Below, piece by piece: positions 10,291 to 49,947 of a stretch of DNA of 64,000 nucleotides (its first letter is position 1; the number at the start of each line of letters is the position of its first letter). Origin of the DNA: a bacterium. Lineage in GTDB: Bacteria > CAIWAD01. The notes under the pieces were generated by a model. It was not told the origin of the DNA and made no database searches. It worked only from the letters and a program-made list of their open reading frames with translations. The translations under genes were made by a program, and so were the position numbers. The DNA lies in the NCBI GenBank assembly GCA_030429345.1, contig JAUIFJ010000012.1, positions 19,898 through 83,897 on the forward strand, in the 5' to 3' direction.

Positions 10291-11985
10291 ATGAAACCTT
10301 TGCTGCTCGCGCTGCTACTCGCGCAGGCCGGACACCTCCATGCCGAACACGCCATCGGTTCGACCCCGGCGGATTTCAGTGGAACACCGACCCGTCCCCA
10401 GGAATTCGGAAACAACTGGTCGCTGTCGGACCACCAGGGAAAGGTGGTGCTGGTCAATTTCGGCGCCATCTGGTGACCGGGCTGCAATTCGGAGTTTCCG
10501 CATTTACAGAACGACTTTGAAAGCGCCTACCCGGAAGAATTCTTCGAGCTGGTCCACGTGGATGTGGACAATCGCCCGGCCTCCGGCCTGAACAACCACT
10601 GGGCCCATGACAATCCCACCTTTCCCGTGCTGACCGGCGCCGCGGGCATTTTCGGCGCCTGGGGCACGGGCTACATTCCCCATACGACCATCCTGGACCC
10701 CCAGGGCGTGGTTCGCGGCAACTGGGTCGGCTGGAGCAGTTCCGCCGGCAACGCCATGCACTCGGTGATCCAGGCCTGGCTGCCCGCACCCGCGGAGCCG
10801 GAAGTCGCGGCGCTGCATTTTTCCGGCGACGCCAACAATGATGCCCACCCGGATCCCGGCGAGCTCTTGCAGCTGGAACTCGTGCTGGCCAATCCGGCCG
10901 GCCTGCAAGGCGCCCAGAACCTGAGCTGCAACCTTGAAACCGCCGGCCCCTGGCTGACGGTGACCCAGGCCCAGACCTTCGCGGACCAGCTGCCCGGCGG
11001 CGGCCAGACAGCCTGCGCACCGCTGCTGGTACTGCAGGTCGATCCGGCGTCTCCGCGTCACACGGCCCAGCTGCAGTTCAGCTGGAGCGCGACCGGAGCG
11101 CAGGGCGAAGCCCTTTCCGGAAGCTTCAGCGCGCCGCTGGACGTCGCGCGGCACCCGCTGCTCGTCGTCGATCGTGATCCAGCCTACGACGAGGCCGGTC
11201 CCGTGATCGCCGCCCTGGACCAGCTCGGCCTTGCCTACGACCTGTGGACCGGCGGCTGCGCGGACCAGCCGAGTGATTCGCTCAAGTCCTGGAACACGGT
11301 GCTCTGGCTGGGCGGCCGACAGTTCCCCGCCCTGGACGAGGCCGACCTCTTCCAGGCTCGACTTCATGTCTCACAAGGTCGTCGGTTCTTCCTGTCCGCA
11401 CAGCATCTGCCGTCCGCGGCAGCCGACCTGGCGGAGATCTTCGCCATCCAGGAGGGCGCATTCGCCCCGGGACCGATCCTGAGCGGCGTGCCCGGATCGC
11501 CCTTCGAGAACGGCTTCTGCCAGCTCAACACACCCGGCGGCGCGCAGAACAGCATTCATCCCAACGAGCTGCTCCTGCTGGAAGGGGCCGAATCGCTCTT
11601 CGACTGGGCCCCCGGACCGGGAGCCGCGCTTGCCGGAAGACGAGACGCGACGGGACGGGCGCTCTGCGCGGCTTTTCCCCTGGAGGCTGTCGGCACGCAG
11701 ATCGAAGGCTGGGTCACCATTCCGGAGCTGCTTTCGGAATGCCTTGCCTGGCTGGACCAGCCTCAGGAACTGCCTGCGCCGCATCTTGAGATCCAGCGCC
11801 TTGCGGACGGGAGCCTGCGCCTGCAATGGAACAGCATCCCTGGCGCAGCGGGCTATCATGTCTGGACCGGGACGCATCCTTTCCAGGTCGGCTCCTTGCT
11901 CGACACGACGCCGGATACCACGTATACACTCCCCGCGCCTTCTGCCGGCATGGCGGGCTACCGCGTGGAGGCCAGCATCGACTAG
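10291..11985 (+). CDS. TlpA/ResA-like thiol:disulfide oxidoreductase, predicted selenoprotein (W-U-P-G-C; in-frame TGA at 10474-10476), fused to a large unknown domain and a C-terminal FN3-like module
   Basis: The ORFs 10231..10476 and 10558..11985 are in the same frame with no other stop between them. The TGA falls exactly at the first Cys of the thioredoxin motif (VVLVNFGAIW-[TGA]-PGCNSEFPHL). A signal peptide MKPLLLALLLAQAGHLHA and a GGAGA RBS are present. Confidence 0.7.
10486..10504 (+). promoter_or_regulatory. SECIS-like hairpin downstream of the UGA (AAUUCGG-AGUUU-CCGCAUU, loop at +17..+21)
   Basis: The stem-loop was folded by eye. It has the same geometry and loop sequence as the hairpins after the other two in-frame TGAs. 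Confidence 0.4.
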
Positions 11986-12015: not shown

Positions 12016-12050
12016 GAAAACCCTTTGCAGCCGCGAAGGGTTTTCTTTCC
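12016..12050 (+). terminator. rho-independent terminator after the first TlpA-like selenoprotein gene
   Basis: The hairpin GAAAACCCTT-tgcagccgcg-AAGGGTTTT is followed by a CTTTCCTTTCC run. Confidence 0.5.
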
Positions 12051-12191
12051 TTTCCCTTCGCCAACCCCTGGCCGGATTCAGCGGCGCCGCCCTCCCCTGT
12101 GCCTGCTGAACCTATCGTGGGCATCGTCCTGCGTGTCCCGACATTCCATGCACACGACGCAAACCCTTGTACACAGCTCAGAGGTTACTTG

Positions 12192-12905
12192 ATGAAAAGC
12201 CTGATTCCGGCCCTGCTGCTGGTTCCCCTGCTGGCAGCCCGGGCCGAGTACCCCGCGGGATCGACCCCGCCCGATTTCACTGGAACGACAACCCAACCAG
12301 GCCTCTACGGCCCGGAGTGGACCCTCTCCGATCAGGCCGGCAAGATCGTGCTGCTGCATTGGGGCGCCTGGTGGTGACCGCCCTGCAATGCGGAGTTTCC
12401 GCAGCTGCAGAACCAGATCCGCGAGTTCTATCCGGAGGACGTGCTGGCCATCGCTCATGTGGAGATCACGACCCAGAGCGCCTCTTTCCTCAATAACCAC
12501 TGGGGGCAGTACGATCCGACCTTTCCGCTGTTGACCGGCCTGGACAATCTCTGGCCGGCCTGGACCGTCAACGGGCTGCGTCCGCTGGTGACGATCCTGG
12601 ATCCGCAGGGCGTGGTCGTCGGCAACTGGACCTCCTACACGGAGAGCCACATTGACGACTTCCGCACTGCCATCGACTCGCTGCTTCCCCTGGAGGCACC
12701 GGTACTGTCCATCGAGCGCATGGCCAATGGCATGCTGCGGCTGCACTGGACGGAAGTGGAAGGAGCCGGCAGCTATCGTCTGCTGCAGGCAGCCACTCCC
12801 TGGCAGGAAGGCATCGAGCTGATCCAGACTCCCCTGTTCGAACATGTGCTTGCCGCGCCCGCGCCCGGCCGCGGCTGGTTCCAGGTGGAAGCCCTGGCCC
12901 CCTGA
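12192..12905 (+). CDS. TlpA/ResA-like thiol:disulfide oxidoreductase paralog, predicted selenoprotein (W-U-P-P-C; in-frame TGA at 12375-12377) with a C-terminal FN3-like module
   Basis: The ORFs 11826..12377 and 12441..12905 are in the same frame and are joined across HWGAWW-[TGA]-PPCNAEFPQL. The start at MKSLIPALLL has a signal peptide and a GAGG RBS. Sec is at residue 62, as in the upstream paralog. Confidence 0.7.
12383..12410 (+). promoter_or_regulatory. SECIS-like hairpin (CUGCA-A-UGCGG-AGUUU-CCGCA-GC-UGCAG, loop at +17..+21 after UGA)
   Basis: The stem-loop was folded by eye and has about 10 bp of stem. Confidence 0.45.
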
Positions 12906-12928
12906 GTCAACACGCATCCAGGCATTCT

Positions 12929-12961
12929 GCCCTGCCCTCCACCTGGAGGGCAGGGCTTTTT
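12929..12961 (+). terminator. rho-independent terminator
   Basis: The hairpin GCCCTGCCCTCC-acct-GGAGGGCAGGGC is followed by TTTTT. Confidence 0.6.
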
Positions 12962-13000
12962 CAATCCGTGAACAAATTCGACTGAATTCTGTAATCACTC

Positions 13001-13029
13001 TTGACGACAACACTTTCAGCTGTTATCAT
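13001..13029 (+). promoter_or_regulatory. sigma70-like promoter for the TrmB-family gene (TTGACG-17 nt-TATCAT)
   Basis: The -35 and -10 hexamers match consensus and the spacer is 17 nt. The site lies about 25 nt upstream of the GAGGAG RBS. Confidence 0.45.
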
Positions 13030-13055
13030 ATCGCCTGACGACAACCGAGGAGAAG

Positions 13056-22291: not shown

Positions 22292-22359
22292 TTGCCCGTT
22301 GGGGCCGCCGTGTGAATTGTTATTCTTTCCTGGTTTACCAGAATTTCCAGGGAGGATTC

Positions 22360-28780: not shown

Positions 28781-28986
28781 TTCTTGCCTCTTCCGTTGGT
28801 GAGTGCCGCTTCCCGCGGCAGAACCTGACACTTATCGACCGCCTGGCCGTCCATGTCCAGAAGGTAGGGCATCGGGATCATGCTCAAATACGAGGATCTT
28901 CGTATGGCAGGCCCGTCGTGCAAGCTCCTACTTGGGGCGCATCATGGAAACCAGCACGGTTTCCTCGCAACAGAATGGAATGCCCC

Positions 28987-30219
28987 ATGAAAACTGCACT
29001 CGGACTGCTTTGGCTGGGCTTCTGCCTGCCTGCCGCCCATGCCGACTGGGAGGCCGTGCACGATGGTCTGGAGAATCTGGAACTGCGCGCCCTGGTTGCG
29101 TATGCGGACACGGTGATGGCGGGAACGGCCGACGGCATCTTCCGCAGCCAGGACGGCAGCAGCTGGACGGACATCAGCGGCAACCTGGCCATGCGCGATG
29201 TCCAGGGCTTGTGGGGCGGCGGCGCACCCCGCGTGCTTTGGGTCGCCACTTTCGATGGCGTTTACCAGACCGTCAACCACGACCACTACGACAACAACAC
29301 CGGCAGCGGCCTGGGTACGGCGGATGCCCACTACTACTGGTTCGGCGACACATCGGAGGAAGCCACCGAATGCGCCGTCGGAACCAATGGCGCAGGTCTC
29401 TATGTTGGCGCGGACTGGGGCGGCCCCTGGACGGCGCGCAACAACGGCCTGACCGGCGATGCCCTGGTGGTCAACAACATGAGCGGCTACTCGGACGACG
29501 ACTTCGACGGAGCTTACCTCTGCACCGAAGGCGGCCTCTTTCTCTCGACGGACAACCTGGCCAGCTGGAGCTCCCTGAACCGCAACCTGAGCGGCGACCA
29601 GCTGCATGTCAATGCCGTGCTCGGTTTCGGCACGGTCGAGATGATCGCCACGGACGCAGGCTTTCTCTACAGCCTGGAAGGTGCGGACTGGGCGCCCCTC
29701 GTCGAGGATGACGGGGTCTTCAATGTCTTCGCCCTGTACCCCATGCAGGGAATCGGCCTGGCCTTCGGCACGAACGGCTATGTGACCTTCGACAACTTCA
29801 GCTACATCCCCGTCGACATGGGCGGCGTCAGCGGCGGCCTGGTGACCTGCGCCACGGTTACTTCCACGCATATCTATGTCGGTACGGAAACCGGCGGCGT
29901 CTTCCGCACGCCGATCGACGCGGTCTCGGTCGGCGAACAGGCTCCCCGCCCCGAAGGCTTCCGCCTGGCGCAGAACACGCCCAATCCCTTCAACCCTGTG
30001 ACACGGATTCCCTACGAGCTGGCCCATCCCGCCCGTATACGGCTCCAGGTCCACGACCTGCTCGGCCGCCGGGTGGCCCTCCTCGACCAGGGCCTGCGCG
30101 AAGGCGGCCGGCACCAGCTGAATTTCGACGGCAGCGGCCTGGCCAGCGGGATCTACTTCTATTCCCTGGAAGTGGATCACGAGATCCGCGCCACGCGGCG
30201 CATGCTGCTCAGCAAATAG
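28987..30219 (+). CDS. secreted beta-propeller (BNR/sialidase-like repeat) protein with a T9SS C-terminal domain
   Basis: A signal peptide MKTALGLLWLGFCLPAAHA is present. Repeated S-x-D-x-G-x-x-W motifs are visible. The C-terminus reads NTPNPFNPVTRIPYEL...GIYFYSL...RMLLSK. Confidence 0.6.
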   Translation: MKTALGLLWLGFCLPAAHADWEAVHDGLENLELRALVAYADTVMAGTADGIFRSQDGSSWTDISGNLAMRDVQGLWGGGAPRVLWVATFDGVYQTVNHDHYDNNTGSGLGTADAHYYWFGDTSEEATECAVGTNGAGLYVGADWGGPWTARNNGLTGDALVVNNMSGYSDDDFDGAYLCTEGGLFLSTDNLASWSSLNRNLSGDQLHVNAVLGFGTVEMIATDAGFLYSLEGADWAPLVEDDGVFNVFALYPMQGIGLAFGTNGYVTFDNFSYIPVDMGGVSGGLVTCATVTSTHIYVGTETGGVFRTPIDAVSVGEQAPRPEGFRLAQNTPNPFNPVTRIPYELAHPARIRLQVHDLLGRRVALLDQGLREGGRHQLNFDGSGLASGIYFYSLEVDHEIRATRRMLLSK

Positions 30220-30394
30220 TCCCGCCCTCTCATGGGCGGCAACCGGCGGCGGGAATGGTCTACATTCCTTGCGGGGAAACAGTCGGTTGCCGCCCTCTTC
30301 CAGGCCACTACAGTCTGTTTTTCGAAAACGAGAACGGGGCCCCGCAAGGGGCCCCGTTCGTGTTGGAAGAGGTGGTCCAGCACCTGTGGCAGGG

Positions 30395-31981
30395 TTACTT
30401 GACCAGTGTCAGGGACTGAATGCTGCGCTGGCGATTGCTCTCCAGCAGGGCGATGTAGCGGCCGCTGGCCAGTCCGGAAGCGTTCCAGACCAGGCTGTGG
30501 CTGCCGGCCTGCAGGCCGCCTTCATACAACACGCTGACCAGCTGGCCCTGCAGGTTGTATACGGCCAGGCGTGCATCGCCGGACTGCGCCAGCTCGAACC
30601 TGAGGCTGGTGGTCGGGTTGAAGGGGTTGGGATAGGCCGGGTTGATGTGGACGCCGTCCGGACGGCTCAGCTCCTGGCCGACCGACGTCAGCTGGCCCAG
30701 CTCGATCGCGACATCGCCGGCTCCCGGCGCGTCCACGGTGGCCCAGGCGCCCAGGGTGCTGTTGGCCAGCGTTCCCGTGGCCCAGACCGTGTAGGTGGTA
30801 CCGGCCATCAGCTCGACCGGCTCGAAGGCAAGCACCACGTCCTGGGTGCCCGCCAGGCGGACTTCCAGGTCGTAGGCCATCGGCATCACCGGCGTATACA
30901 TGGCGGATTCGTTGAATTCGATGTCGCCGAAGAGCACGGTGCCGTCGGCCAGAGTGATGTCGACTGCCGGGGCATCGGCACCGGTGTGCACGAAACGGAC
31001 CCAGGCTTCGTCAGGGTCGGTGAGGCGCGTGTCGCTCAGGACCACGGGGCCGAAGCTCTCGTCGGCCAGCAGGCCGGTGGCGGCCACGGTGGTGGCGCTG
31101 CCCGCGGCGAAGTCGAGGGTGGCGTCGATCACGGGATCGGTGGTCGTGCCGGCGACGAAGACCTGCACGTTGCGGCTGCCGGCCATGATGTCCAGGTAGG
31201 GACTGAAAGCGGGATAGCTCACGTCGCTGAGCACTTCCGCGCCGTCCAGCCAGACATCGACGGCGGGAGCGTCCTCGCTCAGGTGCGCCACGCGCAGGCT
31301 GGTGCCCAGCACGCTCAACTCCTGCGCCTCATCCCCCGGGCCCGGGGCGTCTACGGTCGCCCAGGCGCCCAGTGTGCCGTCGGCAAGCGTCCCTTTGGCC
31401 AGAACGGAATAAGTCGTGCCCTGGTCCAGGGAAACCGGCTCGAAGGAAAGTACGACGTCCTCTGTCCCCGCAATGCGGACCTGCAGGCTGTAGCTGCCGG
31501 GGTGCACGGGGGTATAGTCGATAAACTCGTTGAACTCGACATCCTCGAAAAGCACCGTGCCATCCGCAAGGGTGATGTCTACGGCGGGGGCGTCCGCCGC
31601 CGTGTGGACAAAGCGGACCCAGGCCATTGAAGGATCGGTGTCGCGCGTATCACTCAGGACCAGAGGACCGAAGCTGTCGTCGGACAGCAGCCCGGTAGCG
31701 GCCACAGTCGTTGCGCTGCCTTCAGCGAAATCGAGGGTGGCGTCGATCACAGGATCCATCGAAGTACCCGTGGCGAAAACCTGCACCTGGTGCATGCCGG
31801 CATCGATATCCTGATAGCCGCTGAAAGCGCCGTAGGGCACATTGTTCAGGACAACGGAACCATCCAGCCACACATCCACGTTCGGGGCGTCCGGGCTTAC
31901 ATGAGCAACGCGCAGATCCGCACCCTGGGCCGCCAGAGGCAATGCCAGACCTGCTACAAGAAATGCTTTCCAGTTCATCAT
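30395..31981 (-). CDS. tandem DUF4397-domain secreted protein with a T9SS C-terminal domain
   Basis: Two nearly identical halves are present (LRVAHxSxDAPxVDVWLDG...ATLDFAxGSATTVAATGLL). The C-terminus reads AYPNPFNPTTSLRFEL...GRYIALL. Confidence 0.7.
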   Translation of the reverse strand: MMNWKAFLVAGLALPLAAQGADLRVAHVSPDAPNVDVWLDGSVVLNNVPYGAFSGYQDIDAGMHQVQVFATGTSMDPVIDATLDFAEGSATTVAATGLLSDDSFGPLVLSDTRDTDPSMAWVRFVHTAADAPAVDITLADGTVLFEDVEFNEFIDYTPVHPGSYSLQVRIAGTEDVVLSFEPVSLDQGTTYSVLAKGTLADGTLGAWATVDAPGPGDEAQELSVLGTSLRVAHLSEDAPAVDVWLDGAEVLSDVSYPAFSPYLDIMAGSRNVQVFVAGTTTDPVIDATLDFAAGSATTVAATGLLADESFGPVVLSDTRLTDPDEAWVRFVHTGADAPAVDITLADGTVLFGDIEFNESAMYTPVMPMAYDLEVRLAGTQDVVLAFEPVELMAGTTYTVWATGTLANSTLGAWATVDAPGAGDVAIELGQLTSVGQELSRPDGVHINPAYPNPFNPTTSLRFELAQSGDARLAVYNLQGQLVSVLYEGGLQAGSHSLVWNASGLASGRYIALLESNRQRSIQSLTLVK

Positions 31982-32336
31982 CTACTCCTGCGAATTGGGT
32001 TTGACCTTCGATCTGCGAACAGAATATGAACATGAAATCTATCTGTCAAGGTTTCGTCTAAATTAATTCTGGACAGACTGTCATCATTTCCGATAATTCT
32101 TCCCATGAAGGAAGATTTTAATAACTAGTTCGCGCGCTTCTAAACTTATAGTATGGGATCCGCGCTGTGCATCAGGGCAATCAATCGATTTGTTCATCTT
32201 TTGTCGCATTTATGGAGGAGTAGGCCGGAGGGCTGCATTGGCCTGTTTGCCATGGTGGGCAGCTATGTCGCAATGCTGCAGACAGCGACAGTCTTGACCG
32301 ATACAAGGGGCATCAACTCAATTCGGAGGATGGATC

Positions 32337-34268
32337 ATGTCTGCTGCATTCCGGGGAATCGCCGGACGAGTGCGCTTCTTTGCCCTTGCCATGTCCGCGC
32401 TGATCCTGCTGCTGATCGTCGGTGGCGGCGCGACCTGGAAGAACCAGAACAGCACCACGTCCATGCTGCAGGAGCACCTGAACCGCTTACTGGGGGCGGA
32501 CCTGGAAACCCTCGAGCTGGTTTCCGACCTGCAGCTTCATGTATCACGCCTGGCGCAGGACTTCCTGGTCCTGGGCGCGACAGCGGATGCCGAGGTGGAA
32601 AGGTCCCTGCAGGGGCAGCAGGCGGCCTTCGAAGACAAGCTGGGCCAGCTGGGTGTGTACGCGAAGGCCCACGGACAGAAGGATCTGCTGACGCTCCTGG
32701 ATCAGGTGGAGCACAAGTTCGCCTCCTTCCTGGCGCTTGGAGCACAAGGCGGCTCACAGGTTGAGGACCAGGCTTCCGTCATCGATGCCGCACATATCCG
32801 CGCGATCCAGCAGAACACGCAGGGGATCCAGTCGACACTCCAGCAGATGGAGCAGGTGGCGCACACGGAACTCCAGCGGGGCGGCGCGGAGCTGGGAGAT
32901 GTCTTCCAGTCCATGTTGCAGGGCAGGCTGATCCTGGTCGGGATCATCCTGCTGAGCGGCGTGGGCGCCTTCGGGGCGATCTGGCTCTGCACGATCCTGC
33001 TCTCGCGCTTCCTGGTCACACCGGTTACAGCCCTGACCGAAACGGTGCTGGCCTTCAGCCGCCAGGAGTACGACCACGAAATCCCCTGTCTCACGCGCAA
33101 GGACGAGATCGGCGAGATCGCCCGCGAACTGGGCGTACTCGGCAAGCGCTCGGAAGAAGCGCAGCGCCTGCAGCAGCAGACCCTGGAGGAGCAGGAACGG
33201 CGCCTGGAGCAGGAACGGCTGCAGCGCAAGGCCCTGGAGGAAGTGGAGAACCAGAAGAACCTGGTGCAGGAGGAACAGCGCAAGCGCGAGGAAGAGGAAG
33301 CCGCCGCCCTTCGCTTCAAGCAGGAAGTGCATCACATTCTGGAATGCCTGGAAAGCATCCGCTCGGGGAACCTGCAGACCGTGCTCGACCTGAGTGTGGA
33401 AGGCGACCTCGGGAAGATTGCCGAGGGCATCGATCAGTTGCAGCAGACGCTGAAGGACAGCATGGGCCTGATCTCCGGCAACTCTCTGAGCCTGTCCGGA
33501 GCCAGCAGCCAGATGAAAGTCGTCTGCGAAAGCCTCGACACCCAGGCCGGGCAGAATACCCATCGCGCGGAAGAGGTCAACCAGCGCTATGGCGAAGTCA
33601 GCAGCCGCATTCGCAGCGTCTCCGGATCCACGGCCGAGCTGGCGAACAGCATTCGGGAAATCGCGCGCAATGCCGCGAACGGACAGTCTGTCGCACAGGA
33701 CGCCGTCCGCTCGACACAGACAGCCAACCAGACCATCAGCAGCCTGCACAACTCCAGCGCCGAAATCGAGTCGGTGATCAAGACGATCACGGCGATCGCC
33801 GAGCAGACGAACCTGCTGGCATTGAACGCGACCATCGAGGCGGCGCGGGCCGGAGAGGCGGGCAAGGGATTTGCCGTCGTGGCCAACGAGGTGAAGGAAC
33901 TGGCCAAGGAGACGGCGATTGCCACCGAGGACATCGGACGGAAGATCATCGCCATCCAGACCGACACGGCGCAGGCGGTCAAGGCCATCGGCTCGACGAC
34001 GGAGACCATCGAGGGCATCCACGCCATCCAGACCAGCATCGCCGCCGCGGTCGAGGAGCAGAGCGCGACCACCGCCGAGATCAACAACCAGATCGAGGAC
34101 GTCAACCGGCTCGGAGATGAGATCCTGGATCACACGAAGAACGTGGTCGAGGCCGCGCGCCAGACCCAGGGCCAGGTGCACACCATCGTCGATGCCACCG
34201 ATTCCCTGGAAGGGATCAGCATCGAGTTCGGCACGCTTGTCTCACGGTTCCGCTTCGAGAACCGCTAG
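32337..34268 (+). CDS. methyl-accepting chemotaxis protein
   Basis: A GGAGGA RBS and an N-terminal TM helix with a sensor region are present. A HAMP/coiled-coil segment is followed by the MCP signalling domain ([31 protein letters not shown]). Confidence 0.85.
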
Positions 34269-34274
34269 CCTGGG

Positions 34275-36056
34275 CTACTTGAGAAGCAGAAGGCTGCGCG
34301 TCCGGCGTTCTCCGCCCGCGCGCAGCTCGATCCAGTAGCGTCCGCTGGATAGCCCGTCCAGCTCAATCGGCTGCTCATGGAATCCGGCGGGCAGCTGCCC
34401 CAGGTCGAGCTGCAGGCGCATCGCCCCGCGCAGGTCGAAGAGTCGGAGCTGCACCGGCAGCGCGCGCACCAGCGTGAAAGGCAGCTGCACGCGCCCGTTG
34501 AAGGGATTGGGATAGGGCGCGGCAAGACTCAGCAGCGCCGGCCGGGTCGGCCTGTCGTCCCCGCCTTCGACCCCCGTCTCGACGGGGGTGAAAACGACCT
34601 CGAACACGCCGCCGCTTCCCGCGGGCAGGTCCACCAAAAGGGTCTCGGCGTCAAAGGCGCTCCAGGGCTCGCCCTCGTGCATCACGGACAGGATCTCCAG
34701 GCTGCCCGCCTCGTGCGCGATCGGCGAGAGGCGCACGACCCGCGGCTCGTCGGAGTGCTCGAAGCGATAGAAAAGGCGCGCCTCTTCCCCGTGCAGCAGC
34801 AGGCTGCTGTAGAGATAGGTGTAGTAGCCCAGCTCCATGGAATGGTAGCCCGCCTTGTAGCCGTTGCCCTTCGTGGTTCCCCAGGTCTCCTCGCCACGCC
34901 GTGTGCGGTCCGCGTAGACCTCGCCGTAGACGTGATCCACGAAGTGCTCCATGAAGAAGGCGCTGCTGCCCTGGGCCATCTCCAGGTAGTCCGGCGAAGG
35001 ATCCAGCCCCTGCAGCATCAGCCCGGCCATGACTCCCTGCTCCATCTGCCACCAGGCCTTGGTGGTGTCCGGATTTCCCCACATCAGCATCTCGCCGCTC
35101 AGGCGGTTGTAGTCCTTGTAGGGACCGCCGTAGTCATGGTCATAGCCGTTGTCCCACACCTCATCGAAGAGGGTCCGCGCCGCGTCCAGGTACTCCGGAT
35201 TGCCGGTCAGCCGGTAGACGCGGCCCAGGCACCAGGAGGTCTTGAGCACGTGTCCCATGATGGTCATGGTCTCGCCGTTGTCCACGTTCCAGTCCGCGTC
35301 GAAGACCTCGGCGAAACCGATCGCCTGTCCGGGCATGGAGCCGACCAGGTGGTCGATCATCTGCCCGCAGAGCTCCTCCAGGCGCTCGAGGCTCCCGGGA
35401 TCCAGCCCCATCAGCTGGCTGAGCAGGACATGGGTCGTGACCGCGTCCACTGTGGCGTTGAAGCTCTTGCCGACGGGGTTCAGGCCCGTGCGTGAGACAT
35501 TGTCGTAGTAGCCTTCAAGGCCGGGACGATCATCCCAGAAATGCTCTTCGAGCCAGGCGGATCCTTCTTCCACGGCCTCCAGCCAGAGTTCGCCCGCCGT
35601 GGCCTCGATGGCGGCGGCATAGCCCAGCAGGGCATAGTGCTGGTCGAAGGCGTTCTTCCCGGCCCAGGGATTGACGGGTTCTCCCTGGCTGTCGAGCTGG
35701 GAAAACCAGCCACCGTATTCCTCGTCCCAGCCGTGTTCGGCGAGCCAGGCCAGGCCCTGCTCCGCGCGGTCCAGCCAGGCCTCGTTCCCCGTGAGCATGA
35801 AGGCCCGCACATAGCCGTAGGCGTTGCGGGCCTGGGTCAGCATGTTCTTGGCGCTGCCCGTCGGCTGCCCCTGGCGGTTGACGTCCGTATACCAGCCGCC
35901 TCCCTGGGCGTCCCAGGAATCCTCCCAGAACACGGCGCAGCTGTCTACATAGCCGATGTTGAGTTCCGGATTCGTGATGTAGGGACTGCTGAACTGGGCC
36001 CGCGCAGGCAGGACGCCGCTTGCGGCCAGCAACAGGAAAAGAAGGATGCGATGCAT
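34275..36056 (-). CDS. N-acylglucosamine 2-epimerase (AGE) superfamily (alpha/alpha)6-barrel protein with a T9SS C-terminal domain
   Basis: A signal peptide is present and the aromatic-rich six-hairpin repeats are typical of the AGE/cellobiose-epimerase fold. The C-terminus reads PYPNPFNGRVQLPFTL...GRYWIEL...LLLLK. Confidence 0.65.
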   Translation of the reverse strand: MHRILLFLLLAASGVLPARAQFSSPYITNPELNIGYVDSCAVFWEDSWDAQGGGWYTDVNRQGQPTGSAKNMLTQARNAYGYVRAFMLTGNEAWLDRAEQGLAWLAEHGWDEEYGGWFSQLDSQGEPVNPWAGKNAFDQHYALLGYAAAIEATAGELWLEAVEEGSAWLEEHFWDDRPGLEGYYDNVSRTGLNPVGKSFNATVDAVTTHVLLSQLMGLDPGSLERLEELCGQMIDHLVGSMPGQAIGFAEVFDADWNVDNGETMTIMGHVLKTSWCLGRVYRLTGNPEYLDAARTLFDEVWDNGYDHDYGGPYKDYNRLSGEMLMWGNPDTTKAWWQMEQGVMAGLMLQGLDPSPDYLEMAQGSSAFFMEHFVDHVYGEVYADRTRRGEETWGTTKGNGYKAGYHSMELGYYTYLYSSLLLHGEEARLFYRFEHSDEPRVVRLSPIAHEAGSLEILSVMHEGEPWSAFDAETLLVDLPAGSGGVFEVVFTPVETGVEGGDDRPTRPALLSLAAPYPNPFNGRVQLPFTLVRALPVQLRLFDLRGAMRLQLDLGQLPAGFHEQPIELDGLSSGRYWIELRAGGERRTRSLLLLK

Positions 36057-36112
36057 GTGAACCTCGAAGTGGGAAGCGCTTGCCTCAGTCTGCGCCTTGT
36101 CCAGGCGGCCCG

Positions 36113-36787
36113 TTATTCCTCGGCCCCGGCGGCGATCATGCTGCGGGCAGCCTGCAGCAGCAGTTCCGGCTGCAGGCGGACCCGGTAGTCCGGATTGGCG
36201 TAGACGAAATGAAGGACCCCCTCGCGATCCACCAGGAACACGGCCGGTACTGGCAACTGGTGATGATCACGCCCCGAATCGGCCTCCAGGTCGATGTCGA
36301 AGGACTCCTTGTACTTTCGAACCAGGCTCTCCTCCACCTGGAAGGCAATGCCCATGGCGCGCGCCGCACGCATGTCGCTGTCGGAACACAGCAGGTAGCC
36401 CACACCCTCCTCGACTGCTGTATCACGCTGTTTCCCGGGGCGATCCGGGCTGACGGCGATCACCTGGCAACCCAGGGCAAGCAGTTCGTCCTCGATCTCC
36501 TGCAGCTCTCCCAACTGGAGAGTGCAGTAGGGTCACCAGCCGCCGCGGAAGAAGACGAGCACGGTCGGCTTCTTCGCCCACAGGCTGTCCAGGAGTACCT
36601 CCGAGCCATCGGCGAGCCGCAGCTGCAGAGCAGGGATCTGCGTACCGACCAGGCGCGGGCAGATCTGCTCCGCCGAATCGGCGACGGGGTGCTGCCCAGT
36701 ACTCAGTGCCCTTGCCGCGAAGGGCATGAGCAGGAATCCCAGGGCGACAAGAAGTCGAATGGAACCCAGCGACACCTTCATCTTCAT
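36113..36787 (-). CDS. periplasmic peroxiredoxin-like (AhpC/TSA, PRX-like) protein, predicted selenoprotein (W-U-P-Y-C; in-frame TGA at 36533-36535)
   Basis: The ORFs 36533..36823 and 36113..36514 are in the same frame with no other stop. The TGA falls at the peroxidatic Cys position of FFRGGW-[TGA]-PYCTLQLGEL. The signal peptide MKMKVSLGSIRLLVALGFLLMPFAARA has an AAGGAA RBS. Confidence 0.7.
36502..36525 (-). promoter_or_regulatory. SECIS-like hairpin (GCA-CUCUCC-AGUUG-GGAGAG-C-UGC, loop at +17..+21 after UGA)
   Basis: The stem-loop was folded by eye on the mRNA strand. Confidence 0.45.
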
Positions 36788-36899
36788 TTCATTCCTTTCG
36801 TCCGAAGGCAGGTACTGCGGCATCCGCGCCTATCTGGGCCATCGATGCCCGGCCAGTCGGAATACTGTATCACCGTGGCCCGGGCTGCCCCTCGGCAGG

Positions 36900-39599
36900 C
36901 TAGTTCACGATGAGCAGCTTGCTGCGGGCCACGGCGCCTTTCTGGCGCGCCTCCAGAAAGTAGGGTCCGCTGGGCAGGGAGTCCAATCGCAGACGCAGGT
37001 GCGTTTCTCCCGCTCCCGCGGCCACTCCTTGTTCCAGCACGCGGCGGCCGGCAAGGTCATAGAGGCGAATGCCGATCGGCGCGTCGCTTGCGTGATACAG
37101 AGTCACCTCCAGCTGGCCATTCGCGGGATTGGGCCGCGGTTGTCCCAGGCGGAAGTCCCCGGGAGCCTTTGCAAGCCTCCCTACGGGGACCTCCAGGGCC
37201 GTGGCTCGCAGCTCCAGGGCTTGCCCGGCAGGAGCCGGAAACTGCACCCACAGCTCCTCCTCCGCCGGGAGATAGCACCAGCCGGATGGCAGCTGGAACA
37301 GGGTCTCCAGGTCCTCGACGGCCTCGAGCGGCGCACCCTCCAGGCTGGGCAGCGAAGGAGCGCTGCGAATGCCCCGCGTCCGCAGCCGGATCATCCGCGT
37401 CTCCGGCTGGCCGGCGAAACTTCCCTGGCGCGCCTCGGCACGAAAGACCAGGTTCCCTTCGGCGTCGGTCTCCTGCCGGAAGAGCCGTTCGCTGAAGGCG
37501 CCGTCCAGGTAGGCCCGGCTCAGGCCGTCGTCCTCGTAGAGCCGGAATTCGCCGCTGCTGCCGCGCGCGGGGAAGCACTCGACCACCAGGGTGTCGGGCA
37601 GGCGGTCCGGACGCAGCTGGGATGCCGTCTGCGACACAAGCAGGGCGCCCGCCCGCAGCAGGTGGGGCAGCCGATCGAGCGGCGCCTCCAGCTGGGCCAG
37701 CTGGCGCCCCTGGTGGAACTGGCCCGTTTCGCGATCGAACCACTGCCCCTCCGGCAGCCAGCAGCTTCGTGTGACAGCTCCCGGATCAACCACCGGCGCC
37801 GCCAGCAGGTCTTCGCCGAGCAGCCAGGCGTTCTCTTCCCCGTGCAGGGGGTCGAAGTCCGGGTCGCTCCACCACAGCGGCCGGACCGGCGGCGCTCCGC
37901 TGTGCTGCGCCTCGCGGGCCAGCGTATACAAGGTCGGCAGCAGCTCCTGGCGCAGGCGGATCGCCTTCGAGACCGCCGCCTCCGCCATGGCCCCGAAGCC
38001 CCAGGGCTCGGTGGGCAGGTCGTCGACGCCGTGGGCGCGCATCACGGGCGAGAGCGCGCCGGCCTGCAGCCAACGCGTATACAGCTCCGCGTCCGCGCCT
38101 CCGCAGCAGAAGCCGCCCAGGTCGCTGCCGTGCCAGGAAAAGCCGGAGAGCCCCATGGCCAGCAGCAGCGGCCCCTGGGCCTGCAGGCCGCCCCAGCTGC
38201 GCGCCACGTCTCCCGACCAGGTGAAGGTGCCGTAGCGCTGGCTGCCGGCCCAGCCGGAGCGGCTCAGGCTTAGGAAGCGACTGTCGGCCTGCTCCTCGTG
38301 ATGCTCGGCCAGGGCCCGTGTCCAGAGCAGGTTGTAGACATTGTGCACCTGCGCCGCGCTGCCGCCGGCGTGCACCATTCCGGCAGGATGCCGTTCCGGC
38401 TCGCCCAGGTCGGTCCAGAAGCCGGCGATGCCCTGGTCGCGCAGACTCGTGTGACGCTGGGCCCACCAGGTGGCGGCGTCTGGCAGGCTGAAGTCCATCA
38501 GCACCGCGTCACAGCCGCAGGACCACCAGTTCTCCAGCCGCCAGGGATCGCCTTCCGGCGTCTGCGCCAGGTAGTGCGGGGCGCTGCCGGCGAGCACCGG
38601 GAAGAGCTGGCTGTTCTGTGTGACATAGGGCTCCGTGATCAGCATGGTGCGCACGCCCAGCTCGAGGAAGTCGGCGATCATCGTCTGCGGGTCGGGAAAG
38701 GCGGCGGGATTCCAGGCCAGGTCGCCCATCTGCTGGAACCAGTAGAGGTCCAGGATGATCGCGCCCAGCGGCAGCTCGCGCTCGAGAAAGCCGTCCACCA
38801 GCTCGCGGGCCTGGTCCTCGTTACGGTAGCCGTACTTGGACTGCAGGAAGCCCAGCGCCCAGCGAGGCGGCAAGGGCGGCCTGCCCGTTGCCCAGGTCCA
38901 GGCTTCCAGCTGTTCGGGCACCTGCGGATCGCAGAGCAGCAGCAGACGCATGGGGCCTTCGGGAAGGGCAAGCCGGAAGAGGTCCTCGCTGGAGGCGGCG
39001 CAATCCACCTGGCTGCGGGCCGGATTGTCCAGGGCCAGGGCGCCGAGCCCCGGCAGCAGGAAGAGCGGGACATTGATGTTCATGGGGTCGGGCGCCTGGG
39101 ACCAGCCGCCGGCCTGGGTGTTCCACAGCTCGAAAGCTCGGCCGCGCAGGTCGCCCCCCCTTTCGCCGCTTCCGTAGACACGCTGCCCCGGCGGCAGGCG
39201 GAAGCCGATGCTGCCGGCCCCGCCCTCCTCGAATGCGAAGCGTTCCTCCACTGGCTGCTCGAGGCTGCCCGTGTTTCCCAACCATTCCAGGCGCAGCGGC
39301 TCCTTGTGCACGATCACTTCGCCCTCGGCCCCGACCAGGCGCAGGCGCTCCTCCTCGACGATCAGGCTCCAGCCGCCGGGCTGGGGATCCTGCAGCAGCA
39401 CATGGCTGCTTTCGGCCGGCTGGGACTCGCCGGGAAAACACTCCACCAGCAGCAGGTCCTCGCGCAGGCTCTGCAGGCGCAGGGCGCCGGGATCCGCCTG
39501 GATCTCGACTCCGGCCGGCAGTTCCTGGTGCAAGATGTAGGAGCCCCACTGTTCCGCCTGCAGGGAGGCGGTCAGCAGGAGCAGCAGGATCAGGGGCAT
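36900..39599 (-). CDS. glycoside hydrolase family 31 (alpha-glucosidase/alpha-xylosidase-like) with a T9SS C-terminal domain
   Basis: The ORF was trimmed to the signal peptide MPLILLLLLTASLQA. The GH31 catalytic blocks are present (GAIILDLYWF, WTDLGEPE, the HNVYNLLW region). The C-terminus reads PRPNPANGQLEVTLYH...GPYFLEA...KLLIVN. Confidence 0.8.
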   Translation of the reverse strand: MPLILLLLLTASLQAEQWGSYILHQELPAGVEIQADPGALRLQSLREDLLLVECFPGESQPAESSHVLLQDPQPGGWSLIVEEERLRLVGAEGEVIVHKEPLRLEWLGNTGSLEQPVEERFAFEEGGAGSIGFRLPPGQRVYGSGERGGDLRGRAFELWNTQAGGWSQAPDPMNINVPLFLLPGLGALALDNPARSQVDCAASSEDLFRLALPEGPMRLLLLCDPQVPEQLEAWTWATGRPPLPPRWALGFLQSKYGYRNEDQARELVDGFLERELPLGAIILDLYWFQQMGDLAWNPAAFPDPQTMIADFLELGVRTMLITEPYVTQNSQLFPVLAGSAPHYLAQTPEGDPWRLENWWSCGCDAVLMDFSLPDAATWWAQRHTSLRDQGIAGFWTDLGEPERHPAGMVHAGGSAAQVHNVYNLLWTRALAEHHEEQADSRFLSLSRSGWAGSQRYGTFTWSGDVARSWGGLQAQGPLLLAMGLSGFSWHGSDLGGFCCGGADAELYTRWLQAGALSPVMRAHGVDDLPTEPWGFGAMAEAAVSKAIRLRQELLPTLYTLAREAQHSGAPPVRPLWWSDPDFDPLHGEENAWLLGEDLLAAPVVDPGAVTRSCWLPEGQWFDRETGQFHQGRQLAQLEAPLDRLPHLLRAGALLVSQTASQLRPDRLPDTLVVECFPARGSSGEFRLYEDDGLSRAYLDGAFSERLFRQETDAEGNLVFRAEARQGSFAGQPETRMIRLRTRGIRSAPSLPSLEGAPLEAVEDLETLFQLPSGWCYLPAEEELWVQFPAPAGQALELRATALEVPVGRLAKAPGDFRLGQPRPNPANGQLEVTLYHASDAPIGIRLYDLAGRRVLEQGVAAGAGETHLRLRLDSLPSGPYFLEARQKGAVARSKLLIVN

Positions 39600-39728
39600 G
39601 AGCGACTCCGGATTTGCTGCCCAAGAAGGCATTTCCGCATCAGGCTCTGCGTGCTTGACATGATTGACGGAAACCACCTTATATACAACCCCGGCAACCC
39701 CACGAAAACCGACTGGAAGACTCAGACC

Positions 39729-41813
39729 ATGAAGACATGGATTCCGCTGCTCTGCGCCCTGGCTGGCCTGCTGCAGGCCCAGGACAGCCATCTGACCCTG
39801 GCCGGCGCCTGGGAGAAGGGCGCCTGCCAGGCGGCCAGCGCCCGCAACGACAGCCTGCTCTATGCGGGCAACGGGCACTTCATCGAGCTGGTGGATGTGC
39901 GCGACTGGTCGGTGCTGCAGCGTTTCTCAACGCCCTCTTTCATCCAGAGCCTGCTCTTCGAGGATGGCCGGCTGCTGTTGTGGCAGGAGGACAGCCTGAT
40001 CACCTACGACGCCGCCTTGCCCGGAAGCCTGGATCGCCTTGCGGCATGGCCCGAGCCCTGTTCCAACAGTGGACTCGCCGACCTGGAGGGCAGCCTGTTC
40101 AGTGCGATCCACGAAGACACGCTGCGAGTGTGGGACATGTCGGATCCAGGCGCTCCCGACCTGCTCAGCACGACCCTGCTGCAGCAAGCCAGTACGCGGA
40201 TCCTTGGCCAGGACAGCCTGCTCTGCGTACTCCACGACAACAGCCTGGATCTGTGGAGCCTGGCGGATCCGGCTTCGCCCGCCCTGCTGGGGGAAGTGCC
40301 GGGGCTGGCCACCTATCCCGCCATTGCCCGGGACGGCGATCGTCTGCTGGTCGAGAGCGAGGACAGCCTGAAGATCTATGACCTGGCCGACCCGGAGAAT
40401 CCGCAGCTCGAAGGCGCTTTCGAGCTTCCTGGATTTGTGATACACAGCTGCCTGTCGGGAAACCGGGCCGCCGTGTCGACTCCCTACACGCAATACCTGT
40501 ACAGCCTGATCGATCCGACCGCTCCCGGCCTTGTGGACAGCCTGGACCAGCCGAGTGGCGGACTGCTGCATTTCGTCGGGAACCGCCTGTGTCTGGTCTA
40601 CCAGACGAAACAGCAGAGTTGGCGCACCAGCCTGCAGGACGGGCTGGTCGAGCCGGCGACACGCTGGATGGGAGGCAATGCCGCCGGGCTGCATCTGGCC
40701 GGTGACCGGGCATTCGCCGGCTTCAACCAGGCCGGCTTCGCGATTCTCAGCCTGATCGCGCCCGGCGAGCTGAGCGAGCTCTTCGAGCGCCAGGACCCGG
40801 AAACCGGCGTCCGCGCGCTCGACGGATGGAGCACGCGCCTCGTCACCATTGACGGCAATGCCCGGTTCCGACTCCTGGACGCAAGCGGGCCCGGAGTGCC
40901 CGTGGAGCTCGGCGCCATGGATCTGCCGGCAGTCCCCGAGCTCTTCGTGGACGGGATCAACGCCTGGTGCATGGATGACGACAGCCTGCGCATGATCCGG
41001 CTGCTCGGGCCCTTCGCGCCGAGCCAGGCCGTCGTACTGCCTCACGGCTTGAGTGGCAGTTTTCAATATCCGACCAGCCTCTTCGGCGATTCGGGCAGGC
41101 TGATCCTGACCAGCTCGGGCTTTCCGGACGAATTGCTGAGCCTCTACGATACGAGCGATCCCGCCAACCCGCAATTCCTCGGGGACTGGATCGTGCCCAA
41201 TGAGGTGGGCCACCTCTTCAGGGGCGACCTGGAAGGATCGATGGGCGTGCTGCTGGGCACTTCCGGCATCCTGCTCTTCGAGTGGGACGAAGGCGCGCCC
41301 CAGACCCGCGCGCTGATCGATGTGAGCGTCGGCGACCTGCCCGACTGCGCCCGCCTCGACGGGGAGCGGTTGTGGCTGGGCAGCTACAGCGGCCTGCGCC
41401 TCTACTCCATCGCCGATCCGGAAGAGCCGATCCTGGCCGGCTACTGGCCCACCCCCGGGTCCCTGGTCAACCTAGAGGTGCAGGCGGACCGCGTCGTCGG
41501 GCTCGGCCCGACGGGATTGTATCACTGGGGCCGCATCGACACGGATCTCGACCTGGCTATTGCGCCCGTGCTCTCTCCGCAGGCGACGATCGAACTGAGC
41601 TGGAATCCGCTCTCCTTCGCCAGCGGCTACGCCATCTACAGCCGGTCGCCGCTGGAGGGCGCCTGGATCGCCCGGGCGCTTGTGATACAGGACCACTGGA
41701 TGGAGACTCCCTTCGGCAGCGCGCCGGCGAAGCGCGAATACCGGGTGGTTCCTCTCGCTCAGGCCCCGAACGAAATGCAACACACGAACTCCCGAACCAG
41801 GAGTGCCCGATGA
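39729..41813 (+). CDS. secreted LVIVD-repeat beta-propeller protein with a C-terminal FN3-like module
   Basis: A signal peptide MKTWIPLLCALAGLLQA is present. Repeated L-x-[IV]-x-D-[LIV]-[SA]-DP-x-x-P motifs are visible (LRVWDMSDPGAP, LKIYDLADPENP...). Confidence 0.6.
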   Translation: MKTWIPLLCALAGLLQAQDSHLTLAGAWEKGACQAASARNDSLLYAGNGHFIELVDVRDWSVLQRFSTPSFIQSLLFEDGRLLLWQEDSLITYDAALPGSLDRLAAWPEPCSNSGLADLEGSLFSAIHEDTLRVWDMSDPGAPDLLSTTLLQQASTRILGQDSLLCVLHDNSLDLWSLADPASPALLGEVPGLATYPAIARDGDRLLVESEDSLKIYDLADPENPQLEGAFELPGFVIHSCLSGNRAAVSTPYTQYLYSLIDPTAPGLVDSLDQPSGGLLHFVGNRLCLVYQTKQQSWRTSLQDGLVEPATRWMGGNAAGLHLAGDRAFAGFNQAGFAILSLIAPGELSELFERQDPETGVRALDGWSTRLVTIDGNARFRLLDASGPGVPVELGAMDLPAVPELFVDGINAWCMDDDSLRMIRLLGPFAPSQAVVLPHGLSGSFQYPTSLFGDSGRLILTSSGFPDELLSLYDTSDPANPQFLGDWIVPNEVGHLFRGDLEGSMGVLLGTSGILLFEWDEGAPQTRALIDVSVGDLPDCARLDGERLWLGSYSGLRLYSIADPEEPILAGYWPTPGSLVNLEVQADRVVGLGPTGLYHWGRIDTDLDLAIAPVLSPQATIELSWNPLSFASGYAIYSRSPLEGAWIARALVIQDHWMETPFGSAPAKREYRVVPLAQAPNEMQHTNSRTRSAR

Positions 41814-46290: not shown

Positions 46291-46348
46291 ATGGGTCTCC
46301 GGTGAATTCTTTCGTCCGAGATTTCTCTGTTTGCGTATGCATGCAGCC

Positions 46349-48700: not shown

Positions 48701-48947
48701 GAGGTTCTCCTGCGCTGTGTCCCTTTTTGCAAAGGTTGCTGTGTTCTTGAGGATGAGGAAGAGCAGACAGAACCGCAAGGACTGATCCGGACAACCGAAA
48801 ACAGCGTCGCGATCGATCGCCGGCTCACCCGGCTACGCCTTCACTGGATTTCCGGTATTGGTCGAAGGCGATGCGTGGTCGATTTTCCCTGTAGGCGAAT
48901 TGACATGCCTCATGGCGAATCCGGATCCCTTTCGTCTGCTTGACCGG

Positions 48948-49910
48948 ATGAAACTCTTTCCCTTGATGCTCTTGAGCCTCTGCTTCCTCCACCTGGCGGG
49001 CTGCGAGGACGATTCTCCTGCACCTCCAGACCTCGGCGAATGGGTCTTCGTTCCCGCCGGAAGCTTCCGCATGGGGGAAACGGGAACTGCCCGCGCCGAG
49101 CCGGAGCATGAGGTCACCCTGACCCGGCACTACTATCTGAGTCGCTACGAGACCACCAACCTGCAATTCGCCTCCATGCTTCAGTGGGCCTGGGAGAACG
49201 GACGCGTGCTCGCCGACAGCTCGGAAGTGCGCTATCCCTACGGGCAGCATCTGATCCAGCTGATGGACCTCTCGAATCCGGCCTGCGAGATCGCTTTCGA
49301 CAGTACGGGTTTCCGGGTACGGGCGTCACGGGATCCAAGGGCACTGGCTGCCTATCCCCAGGGCTACGAGGCGGAGCTGCATCCGGTCAAGCTGCTCTCC
49401 TGGCGGGCCGCGGCGCTCTACTGCGACTGGCGCAGCATCCGCAACGGCCTGGCCCCGTACTACAATGATGAATGGGAACAGGGCGCTGGCCATGATCCCT
49501 ACCTGGCGGAGGGCTTCCGCCTGCCGACGGAAGCCGAATGGGAACACGCCGCGCGCTACCCGGACTCCCGGGTCTTTCCCTGGGGCAACCAGCCCCTGAC
49601 GCCGCAGCGCGCGGCGTTCCGGCAGTCCTGGTCCAGTCCCGTCGGTTCGAGGCCTTCCGGGGAAAGCGCGCTGGGCCTGGCCGACATGGCGGGCAATGTC
49701 TGGGAATGGACCGACGACGGCTACGGCGAGTATCCCTCTGCCGCAGAGCGCCAGAACCCCCTGGGCCGCTCCGGCGGCTGGCCGCACACCATACGGGGCG
49801 GCTACTGGGACAACGGCGAATCCCTGTTGCGCACGACGGCGCGCACGAGCTTCGGAGTCGACTACCCGCATGCGGGCATCGGCTTCCGCGTCTGCCGGCT
49901 GCTTCCCTGA
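48948..49910 (+). CDS. FGE-sulfatase-fold lipoprotein (single domain)
   Basis: A lipoprotein signal MKLFPLMLLSLCFLHLAGC is present, together with the FGE blocks FRLPTEAEWEHAAR and GNVWEWT. The start is uncertain. An alternative TTG/ATG lies upstream. Confidence 0.65.
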   Translation: MKLFPLMLLSLCFLHLAGCEDDSPAPPDLGEWVFVPAGSFRMGETGTARAEPEHEVTLTRHYYLSRYETTNLQFASMLQWAWENGRVLADSSEVRYPYGQHLIQLMDLSNPACEIAFDSTGFRVRASRDPRALAAYPQGYEAELHPVKLLSWRAAALYCDWRSIRNGLAPYYNDEWEQGAGHDPYLAEGFRLPTEAEWEHAARYPDSRVFPWGNQPLTPQRAAFRQSWSSPVGSRPSGESALGLADMAGNVWEWTDDGYGEYPSAAERQNPLGRSGGWPHTIRGGYWDNGESLLRTTARTSFGVDYPHAGIGFRVCRLLP

Positions 49911-49947
49911 AGGCAAGAGCGCGTTTCGAAGAAGAGGAGTTCCCGGC

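Follow-up and report, generated by a model that had tools for sequence, protein, structure and literature searches.

A probable Prx-like UxxC selenoprotein gene, split at its UGA codon by gene callers, in a 64-kb bacterial contig segment

A family of peroxiredoxin-like (Prx-like) thiol:disulfide oxidoreductases that belongs to pfam00578, carries a UxxC or UxxU motif (U, selenocysteine, Sec) and has WP_010940744.1 as its exemplar is attributed to Kryukov and Gladyshev, 2004 (PMC9312934, PMC13188914). The UxxC motif is given as its defining feature in both of these papers and in the Sargasso Sea study, where the family was named 'Prx-like protein' and comprised 22 sequences (PMC1088965). As 'Prx-like 1' it was represented by 225 selenoprotein sequences in the Global Ocean Sampling study (PMC2398784), and a Prx-like selenoprotein was found in the genomes of Geobacter, Syntrophus and Desulfotalea (PMC1794560). 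Selenoprotein reviews give no experimental function for the family, which is known from prediction only. Here we describe a gene that fits this family (PF00578, UxxC), described since 2004, in a stretch of 64,000 nucleotides from a bacterium (contig JAUIFJ010000012.1 of assembly GCA_030429345.1, positions 19,898 to 83,897 of the forward strand). This whole stretch is referred to as the window, and positions are counted from its first letter. The gene is interrupted by one in-frame TGA. Judged from sequence and comparative evidence, the UGA at codon 85 is most probably recoded as Sec in an exported thioredoxin-fold oxidoreductase of the AhpC/TSA superfamily that is not a canonical peroxiredoxin, a reading to which we assign a probability of about 0.85.

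A gene divided at an in-frame TGA

The minus-strand frame from 36787 to 36113 contains a single internal stop, the TGA at 36535-36533 (...PTVLVFFRGGW-TGA-PYCTLQLGELQEIEDELLALGCQVIAVSPD...). Its read-through translation of 224 residues is MKMKVSLGSIRLLVALGFLLMPFAARALS...KPTVLVFFRGGW-U-PYCTLQLGELQEIEDELLALGCQVIAVSPDRP..., in which the peptide spanning Sec85 is GGW-U-PYCTLQLGELQEIEDELLALGCQVIAVSPDRPGK. A preliminary description of this locus had noted two open reading frames (ORFs) separated only by the TGA, and this was confirmed: the ORF 36113..36514 begins at an internal TTG, and the intervening codons back to the TGA are all in-frame sense codons (P-Y-C-T-L-Q). Public protein sets hold the gene only as pieces, a 133-residue protein recovered in the protein search (P0001) and an 84-residue call on a Logan contig (L002, ERR3428548); the latter call, made independently, has the same start and corresponds to the 84-residue N-terminal fragment. 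The sequence of L002, an independent assembly, is identical to that of the window, and the TGA is therefore not an assembly-specific error. The stretch 36787..36113 is very probably a real selenoprotein gene that gene callers have split in two at the UGA, and its principal features are the following.

36113..36787, minus strand: complete coding sequence of the Prx-like selenoprotein (224 residues, Sec85 among them); start codon ATG at 36787-36785, stop codon TAA at 36113-36115
36533..36535, minus strand: in-frame TGA, predicted codon of Sec85, located at a Cys column of the homologs and TGA also in the ortholog L001 and in at least 120 genome loci
36524..36535, minus strand: redox motif U85-P-Y-C88, a thioredoxin-like UxxC, directly ahead of helix 87-97 in the AlphaFold2 (AF2) model
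36793..36796, minus strand: Shine-Dalgarno-like AGGA, 5 nt 5' of the ATG at 36787-36785

When 5.8 billion proteins were searched, 974 homologs were recovered, and the full-length ones are 45-58% identical to the window protein. The earlier proposal that the TGA replaces a Cys was borne out, as every full-length homolog listed has Cys at the TGA column (F[FY]RGGWC[PM][YF]C, also summarised as RGGWCP[YF]C), and GGWCxxC is present in 117 full-length homologs. Two of the matches are C-terminal fragments of 130-133 residues: P0001, which is the window gene itself as shortened by public gene callers, and P0017, a relative that is 79% identical to the window protein. The contig of P0017 (L001), which is from a different sample, carries a syntenic ortholog with 82% amino-acid identity and TGA at the same codon, and its downstream neighbour gene is also 82% identical to the window counterpart. 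Across the 139 codons after the TGA, the comparison of the window with L001 gave a synonymous divergence (dS) of 0.66 and a nonsynonymous divergence (dN) of 0.11 (dN/dS = 0.16), indicating that this stretch is under purifying selection as protein.

A genome scan with one genome per species was performed for the motif [FY]-R-G-G-W-TGA-P-[YF]-C and detected at least 120 loci. Among the 120 loci listed, every one is a homolog that has TGA at this column and continues in frame for 108-140 conserved codons, and the taxa include Poribacteria, delta-proteobacterial sulfate and metal reducers, Acidobacteria/Thermoanaerobaculia, Chloroflexota, Zixibacteria, Ignavibacteria, Lentisphaeria and others. Within the window, TGA serves as the stop codon of 17 of the 37 well-supported genes, so the code is not reassigned and the in-frame TGAs are special cases.

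A SECIS-like hairpin specific to the UGA-containing forms

A hairpin resembling a selenocysteine insertion sequence (SECIS) follows the UGA.

36497..36530, minus strand: SECIS-like hairpin, core stem 36527-36500, apical loop AGUUG at 36516-36512

The stem (CUGCACUCUCC / GGAGAG-C-UGCAG) is composed of 11 bp (6 bp, one bulged C, then 5 bp), and the apical loop AGUUG of 5 nt is located 16 nt after the UGA. The model for bacterial SECIS elements (bSECIS) specifies a loop of 3-9 nt, an upper stem of 4-16 bp, a G at one of the first two loop positions that is usually followed by G or U, a distance of 16-37 nt between UGA and loop, and a minimum free energy (MFE) of -7.5 kcal/mol or below (PMC13188914). 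The window hairpin agrees with this model on all four of its criteria, with the loop G at position 2 and a U after it. Its MFE is -18.5 kcal/mol, compared with -12.0 +/- 3.2 kcal/mol for synonymous resamples (z = -2.0, p = 0.02). In L001 the 45 nt that follow the UGA carry just 2 differences, against 18% divergence overall, and both changes are compatible with the structure, one being C-G to U-G and the other located in the bulge.

The same region was compared between Sec and Cys forms of the family. Relative to synonymous resamples, the mean z of the 45 nt that follow the UGA was -1.52 across 115 Sec forms, and that of a control site 60 codons further downstream in each of these genes was -0.19. 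The Cys forms were 108 metagenome homologs that have the same motif with TGY and a mean GC content equal to that of the Sec forms; their mean z is -0.22, compared with -1.55 for 114 Sec forms in the same run (Mann-Whitney p = 2.6e-17). As the excess structure is present in the Sec but not in the Cys forms, the hairpin is not a by-product of the encoded peptide. The loop AGUU[GA] is common to sixteen Sec forms from different subfamilies, and all six of the upper-stem pairs show compensatory changes (for example CUCUCC/GGAGAG, CUCGGC/GCCGAG, GCGCCG/CGGCGC). This comparison provides a clean case of RNA structure that is found only where the codon is UGA, and the Sec/Cys-form set could serve as a test set for predictors of bacterial SECIS elements.

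The register of the loop was observed to vary by subfamily among the loci L003-L122; counted from the U of the UGA, AGUU[GA] is found at 19 nt, GGU/GGC/GGA at 23-24 and GUCNU at 26. Each Sec-form subfamily appears to have remade its SECIS around a different set of codons.

Fold, active site and alternative explanations

Residues 47-193 of the protein match the Pfam family AhpC/TSA (PF00578) with 83 bits against a gathering cut-off of 26 (E = 2.2e-23), in keeping with the family proposed earlier, and Redoxin was also matched (E = 2.3e-18). Several of the homologs are named 'peroxiredoxin-like family protein' or 'AhpC/TSA family protein'. No NCBIfam model reached its curated cut-off, and SelL-related, Bcp, ResA, DsbE, TlpA and WAxxUGC all scored far below. 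Membership of the SelL-related redox protein model (NF040769) was rejected, as this best NCBIfam match (E = 2.2e-13) has 50.2 bits against a cut-off of 120. An AF2 model built on the family alignment has a mean predicted local distance difference test (pLDDT) score of 86.7 and places Sec85 directly before helix 87-97. The nearest solved structures are peroxiredoxins of the BCP/PrxQ type (3hjp, template modelling (TM) score 0.89, 17% identity), with ResA-type oxidoreductases lower in the list of structural matches.

Two further features of the protein bear on its location and on its active site.

36707..36787, minus strand: predicted Sec-type (translocon) signal peptide, residues 1-27, with n-region MKMK, core LLVALGFLLMPFAA and a cleavage site of A-R-A then L
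36242..36256, minus strand: conserved L-P-V-P-A, residues 178-182, with its second Pro at the position of the Prx catalytic Arg

The preliminary description had proposed a signal peptide, and the N-terminus does resemble one of the Sec type: by inspection and hydropathy only, the leader has an h-region of 14 hydrophobic residues with a Kyte-Doolittle maximum of 2.52 at residues 12-22. The AF2 model shows this leader as disordered (pLDDT < 50 at residues 1-3 and 16-30), and a comparable N-terminal hydrophobic segment is present in 99 of 113 full-length Cys homologs. In the conserved segment, L178, P179, V180 and P181 are invariant in family alignment A1, and H[HYQ]xLPxP[AS] is found in 111 of 117 homologs. 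The Pro at the catalytic-Arg position is preceded by a near-invariant insert, D-x-E-A-D-S-G-x-x-H-H-x-L-P-V-P (residues 160-182, window 36242-36310), the acidic part of which was observed in 78 of the 117 homologs and the H-x-L-P-x-P part in 111. A partly conserved Cys was also seen about 40 residues N-terminal of the redox motif, in I-C-P-x-L-x-G (39/117). In one locus (L063 1928-3023, a metagenome-assembled genome (MAG) of Deltaproteobacteria) the Sec-form protein runs for 358 codons past the UGA, and by eye this C-terminal extension resembles an S-adenosylmethionine-dependent methyltransferase domain; such a fusion would be unique to this locus.

The homology of active-site residues was determined by aligning the family profile to solved peroxiredoxins (BCP of A. 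pernix, 2cx3; S. tokodaii, 2ywn; and 3hjp), with the following correspondences.

Arg of the family motif F-Y-R-G-G-W-C-P-Y-C: aligned to the Pro of PxxxS/TxxC (F-F-P-A-A-F-S-P-V-C in 2cx3)
First Cys, or Sec85: aligned to Ser46 of 2cx3 and to Thr in 2ywn
Second Cys, C88: aligned to Cys49 of 2cx3
Second Pro of L-P-V-P-A, invariant: aligned to the catalytic Arg of 3hjp and 2ywn

Cys49 of 2cx3 is taken here to be the peroxidatic Cys, and the second Pro of L-P-V-P is presumably the cis-Pro typical of thioredoxin-like proteins. The peroxiredoxin signature PxxxT/SxxC, in which the nucleophile comes last, is not found in R-G-G-W-U-P-Y-C, where Arg stands for the Pro and Sec for the Thr/Ser. Likewise, Pro replaces the conserved catalytic Arg that precedes the beta-strand ...F(V/I)ID of peroxiredoxins, and the only residue of the Prx motif that is kept is the homolog of the peroxidatic Cys, as Cys88. 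The preliminary description had assigned Sec to the peroxidatic position. This part of it does not stand, as Sec85 falls on the Ser/Thr and C88 on the peroxidatic Cys, and in the model Sec85 is located where the CxxC of a thioredoxin has its exposed N-terminal Cys. The Prx-type fold is kept and the active site is of the thioredoxin type. A selenol/thiol-disulfide oxidoreductase is therefore a better description of the protein than a canonical peroxiredoxin: by homology its Sec does not occupy the peroxidatic position, and it lacks the Prx Pro, Thr and Arg. The same separation has been made among selenoproteins, where the TxxU motif marks true Sec-peroxiredoxins and a thioredoxin-like UxxC marks the 'Prx-like' selenoproteins (PMC1088965).

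A mechanism can be proposed on this basis. At the UGA, the hairpin would act as a bacterial SECIS and recruit SelB-GTP-Sec-tRNA(Sec), and the signal peptide would direct the product through the Sec translocon into the periplasm, with cleavage after A-R-A. U85, at the N-terminal end of the active-site helix, would be the exposed nucleophile of the U-P-Y-C couple, and its selenolate may attack an oxidised substrate, either a disulfide or a sulfenic acid, or conceivably a peroxide. C88 would then resolve the adduct, giving an intramolecular selenenylsulfide. Re-reduction of the protein might come from a small thiol or from a DsbD/CcdA-type electron shuttle in the membrane; no partner gene is linked to it.

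Alternatively, as the preliminary description implied, the protein may be a selenium-dependent periplasmic peroxidase, in which direct attack of Sec85 on H2O2 or an organic hydroperoxide would yield a selenenic acid that C88 resolves, as in GPx or 2-Cys Prx enzymes, although its Sec does not align with the peroxidatic Cys. Selenolates are intrinsically reactive with peroxides. The fold is nearest to the BCP/PrxQ peroxidases, the family is AhpC/TSA, and the host, apparently an anaerobe (HydF, HydG and rubrerythrin are encoded in the window), would gain from extracytoplasmic defence against peroxide. We nevertheless consider this unlikely, as Arg, Sec and Pro stand in place of the catalytic Pro, Thr and Arg of peroxiredoxins, the UxxC motif is of the thioredoxin type, which is separated from the peroxidase-type TxxU (PMC1088965), and there is no peroxidase assay for the Prx-like family. 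It is a more doubtful suggestion that the subgroup to which the window protein belongs (exported, with U/C-P-[YF]-C and the insert adjacent to the active site) acts as an extracytoplasmic enzyme with a specific substrate and not as a generic disulfide reductase. Such a substrate could be a peroxide, a sulfenate, a polysulfide or a soft metal(loid) held by the His-His/Asp/Glu cluster together with the selenol. If true, the repeated switching between Cys and Sec across more than 120 species would mark a reaction that is limited by the reactivity of the nucleophile.

Several observations weigh against the recoding of codon 85 as Sec in an exported oxidoreductase. No tRNA-Sec was found in the 64-kb window with ARAGORN and Rfam, which gave four ordinary tRNAs only; SelA, SelB and SelD were not found by Pfam among about 40 window ORFs scanned; and extending the search by 6-8 kb per side along Logan contigs L244 and L245 revealed no Sec-insertion genes either. 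It is chiefly for this reason, the sequence searched for Sec machinery being the window and these flanks, that our confidence stops at the value given above. The UGA-loop spacing of 16 nt is the lower limit of the bSECIS model. The excess stability of the window hairpin is modest when taken alone (z = -2.0), as the encoded peptide C-T-L-Q-L-G-E-L-Q is by itself prone to give a palindrome. The sixteen sequences used for covariation were picked because they fold as a hairpin, which inflates the percentage paired, although the covariation itself still counts. No Rfam family matches the hairpin, and a permissive threshold gave only chance miRNA and snoRNA hits; this is expected, as bacterial SECIS elements have no general covariance model. 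The ORFs up to 4 kb away from 41 orthologous Sec-form loci were clustered and gave no conserved neighbourhood: SHMT and enoyl-CoA hydratase are each near at most 8 of the 41, in groups of closely related genomes, and no partner gene recurs beyond such groups. Lastly, export, substrate and reductant are inferred only.

The absence of visible Sec machinery in the window and flanks would also suit a read-through without Sec, whether by genome-wide reassignment of TGA to Trp or Gly or by a near-cognate tRNA that inserts Trp or Cys at a leaky stop, and this would itself account for the conservation after the TGA. It is however highly unlikely. Reassignment is excluded by the 17 of 37 genes that end in TGA, the codon falls exactly on the redox-active Cys column, the hairpin has the bSECIS loop signature (G then U) at the canonical distance, and the carriers of the TGA include delta-proteobacterial lineages, which are reported to be rich in selenoproteins (PMC1794560). 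That a Cys codon (TGC or TGT) was mutated or misread as TGA, leaving an 84-residue fragment or no product, is scarcely credible despite the public calls of 84 and 133 residues and the lack of Sec machinery in the window and flanks, because the sequence is identical in L002, the TGA is kept in an ortholog 18% diverged in nucleotides with a downstream dN/dS of 0.16, the same TGA is present in at least 120 species with a hairpin specific to Sec forms after it, and two more window genes have the same arrangement; the earlier judgement that this is a selenoprotein and an artefact very unlikely is upheld on these grounds.

Companion candidates, host and comparison with known systems

The pattern TGGTGACCNNNNTGY occurs four times in the window, where 0.05 occurrences are expected. 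Three of these lie in frame within thioredoxin-fold genes, namely the Prx-like gene and two others with the TGA at 10474-10476 (+) and 12375-12377 (+). The fourth, TGGTGACC...TGY at 25403-25417 (-), runs antisense to a large gene on the plus strand and was discarded as a chance match.

10291..11985, plus strand: companion candidate 1, exported and ResA/TlpA-like, W-U-P-G-C, TGA at 10474-10476
12192..12905, plus strand: companion candidate 2, exported and ResA/TlpA-like, W-U-P-P-C, TGA at 12375-12377

The two TlpA-like W-U-P-x-C genes of the preliminary description do exist, but the distance of about 23 kb stated there was not reproduced, the measured values being 24.2 and 26.1 kb. They are adjacent and paralogous, and in both a GUU loop is located 17 nt after the UGA. 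In the first gene the hairpin (10478-10513, loop GUU 10494-10496) is weak, with -10.0 kcal/mol and z = -0.9, and in the second (12383-12410, loop GUU 12395-12397) it has -16.3 kcal/mol and z = -3.2 (p = 0.002 against synonymous resamples). Companion 1 has a C-terminal extension of about 400 residues without a Pfam match, and by eye both proteins end in a fibronectin-III-like segment (…LRLQWNSIPGAAGYHVW… / …LRLHWTEVEGAGSYRLL…). In a Candidatus Delongbacteria MAG (GCA_020634015.1), the rubrerythrin-TrmB gap is only 444 nt and lacks both TlpA-like genes (window 9611-13955 compared with L123 3765-5629). As the pair is located between rubrerythrin and TrmB in the window only, this is an insertion or deletion difference between related genomes.

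The host is probably a Delongbacteria relative, as the aconitase encoded in the window shares 77% identity with its counterpart in a Candidatus Delongbacteria MAG and the region HydF-HydG-rubrerythrin-TrmB-HU-MazG-SpoU-aconitase is syntenic with the MAG GCA_020634015.1. It is likely an anaerobe with a type IX secretion system (T9SS). HydF and HydG, for [FeFe]-hydrogenase maturation (window 6653-9470, minus strand), adjoin rubrerythrin (9611-10147), and together these genes suggest an anaerobic, hydrogen-metabolising host. A beta-eliminating lyase gene (4390-5760) and a cytidylate-kinase-like gene are located beside HydF, and in the Delongbacteria relative a Lyase_1 gene is found between HydF and HydG. 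Por_Secre_tail, the type IX sorting domain, is present on several secreted proteins (window 28918-39878 and 54960-55778), including a GH31 glycosidase, a GlcNAc-2-epimerase-like protein, a DUF4397 protein and others, and these point to a host of the Fibrobacteres-Chlorobi-Bacteroidetes (FCB) group. The selenoprotein gene lies between two Por_Secre_tail genes on the same strand; the products of these flanking genes are glycoside-hydrolase-like secreted proteins that end in T9SS tails, and the genes seem unrelated to it. Elsewhere in the window, four consecutive FGE-sulfatase (formylglycine-generating-enzyme-like) genes at 43933-50919, two of them with very large products of 950 and 809 aa, form an unusual local expansion, and a giant ORF of about 1,800 codons (21862-27363, plus strand) has a strong coding signal and a GC content at third codon positions (GC3) of 0.83.

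A full-text literature search gave no paper naming both Candidatus Delongbacteria and selenocysteine. A lineage that is probably related to Delongbacteria, and in which three exported thioredoxin-fold selenoprotein candidates are located within 26 kb, joins the apparent Sec decoders. The knowledge of selenoproteins as such is unchanged, the family and its UxxC motif having been described two decades ago, and the main value of the present finding is for annotation: the same splitting probably affects more than 120 Sec-form homologs, and recognising split Sec forms restores a complete exported redox protein.

Of the known RNA elements, the hairpin is like the E. coli fdhF-type SECIS, and bSECIS elements generally, in being located inside the coding sequence right after the UGA and in having a small loop with G-U, a 16-nt spacing and an MFE below -7.5 kcal/mol. 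It differs from the fdhF-type element in having no primary-sequence similarity to it, and in that subgroups of the family shift the loop register.

Among the proteins, the Sec-peroxiredoxins (COG1225/Bcp, TxxU) share the superfamily and overall fold with the window protein, the best structural matches being BCP/PrxQ, but their Sec replaces the peroxidatic Cys, whereas that of the window protein is three residues earlier and the peroxidatic homolog is still Cys. The SelL-related proteins (NF040769) have a Prx-like thioredoxin fold with the redox motif at the same place, and are set apart by the score of 50 against 120 bits. ResA/TlpA/CcmG(DsbE) is most likely the appropriate working analogy, with an exported thioredoxin fold, a W-C-x-x-C active site and weak profile matches; however, its NCBIfam scores are far below the cut-offs, the topology of the window protein is Prx/BCP-like, and the window gene has no linkage to a cytochrome c maturation or Cu-chaperone context.

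The closest agreement is with the Prx-like UxxC family itself, for which PF00578, Sec as the first residue of UxxC, widespread Cys homologs and UGA homologs elsewhere are shared, as is an occurrence in anaerobic delta-proteobacteria and many uncultured lineages. The comparison with known Prx-like selenoproteins suggested in the preliminary description thus matches in domain, UxxC, Cys/Sec pairing, UGA homologs and SECIS, the assignment to the subfamily resting on the defining domain and motif and not on a direct alignment with WP_010940744.1. The window protein differs from the family as the reviews describe it in belonging to a subgroup that has the D-x-E-A-D-S-G-x-x-H-H-x-L-P-V-P insert and a signal peptide.

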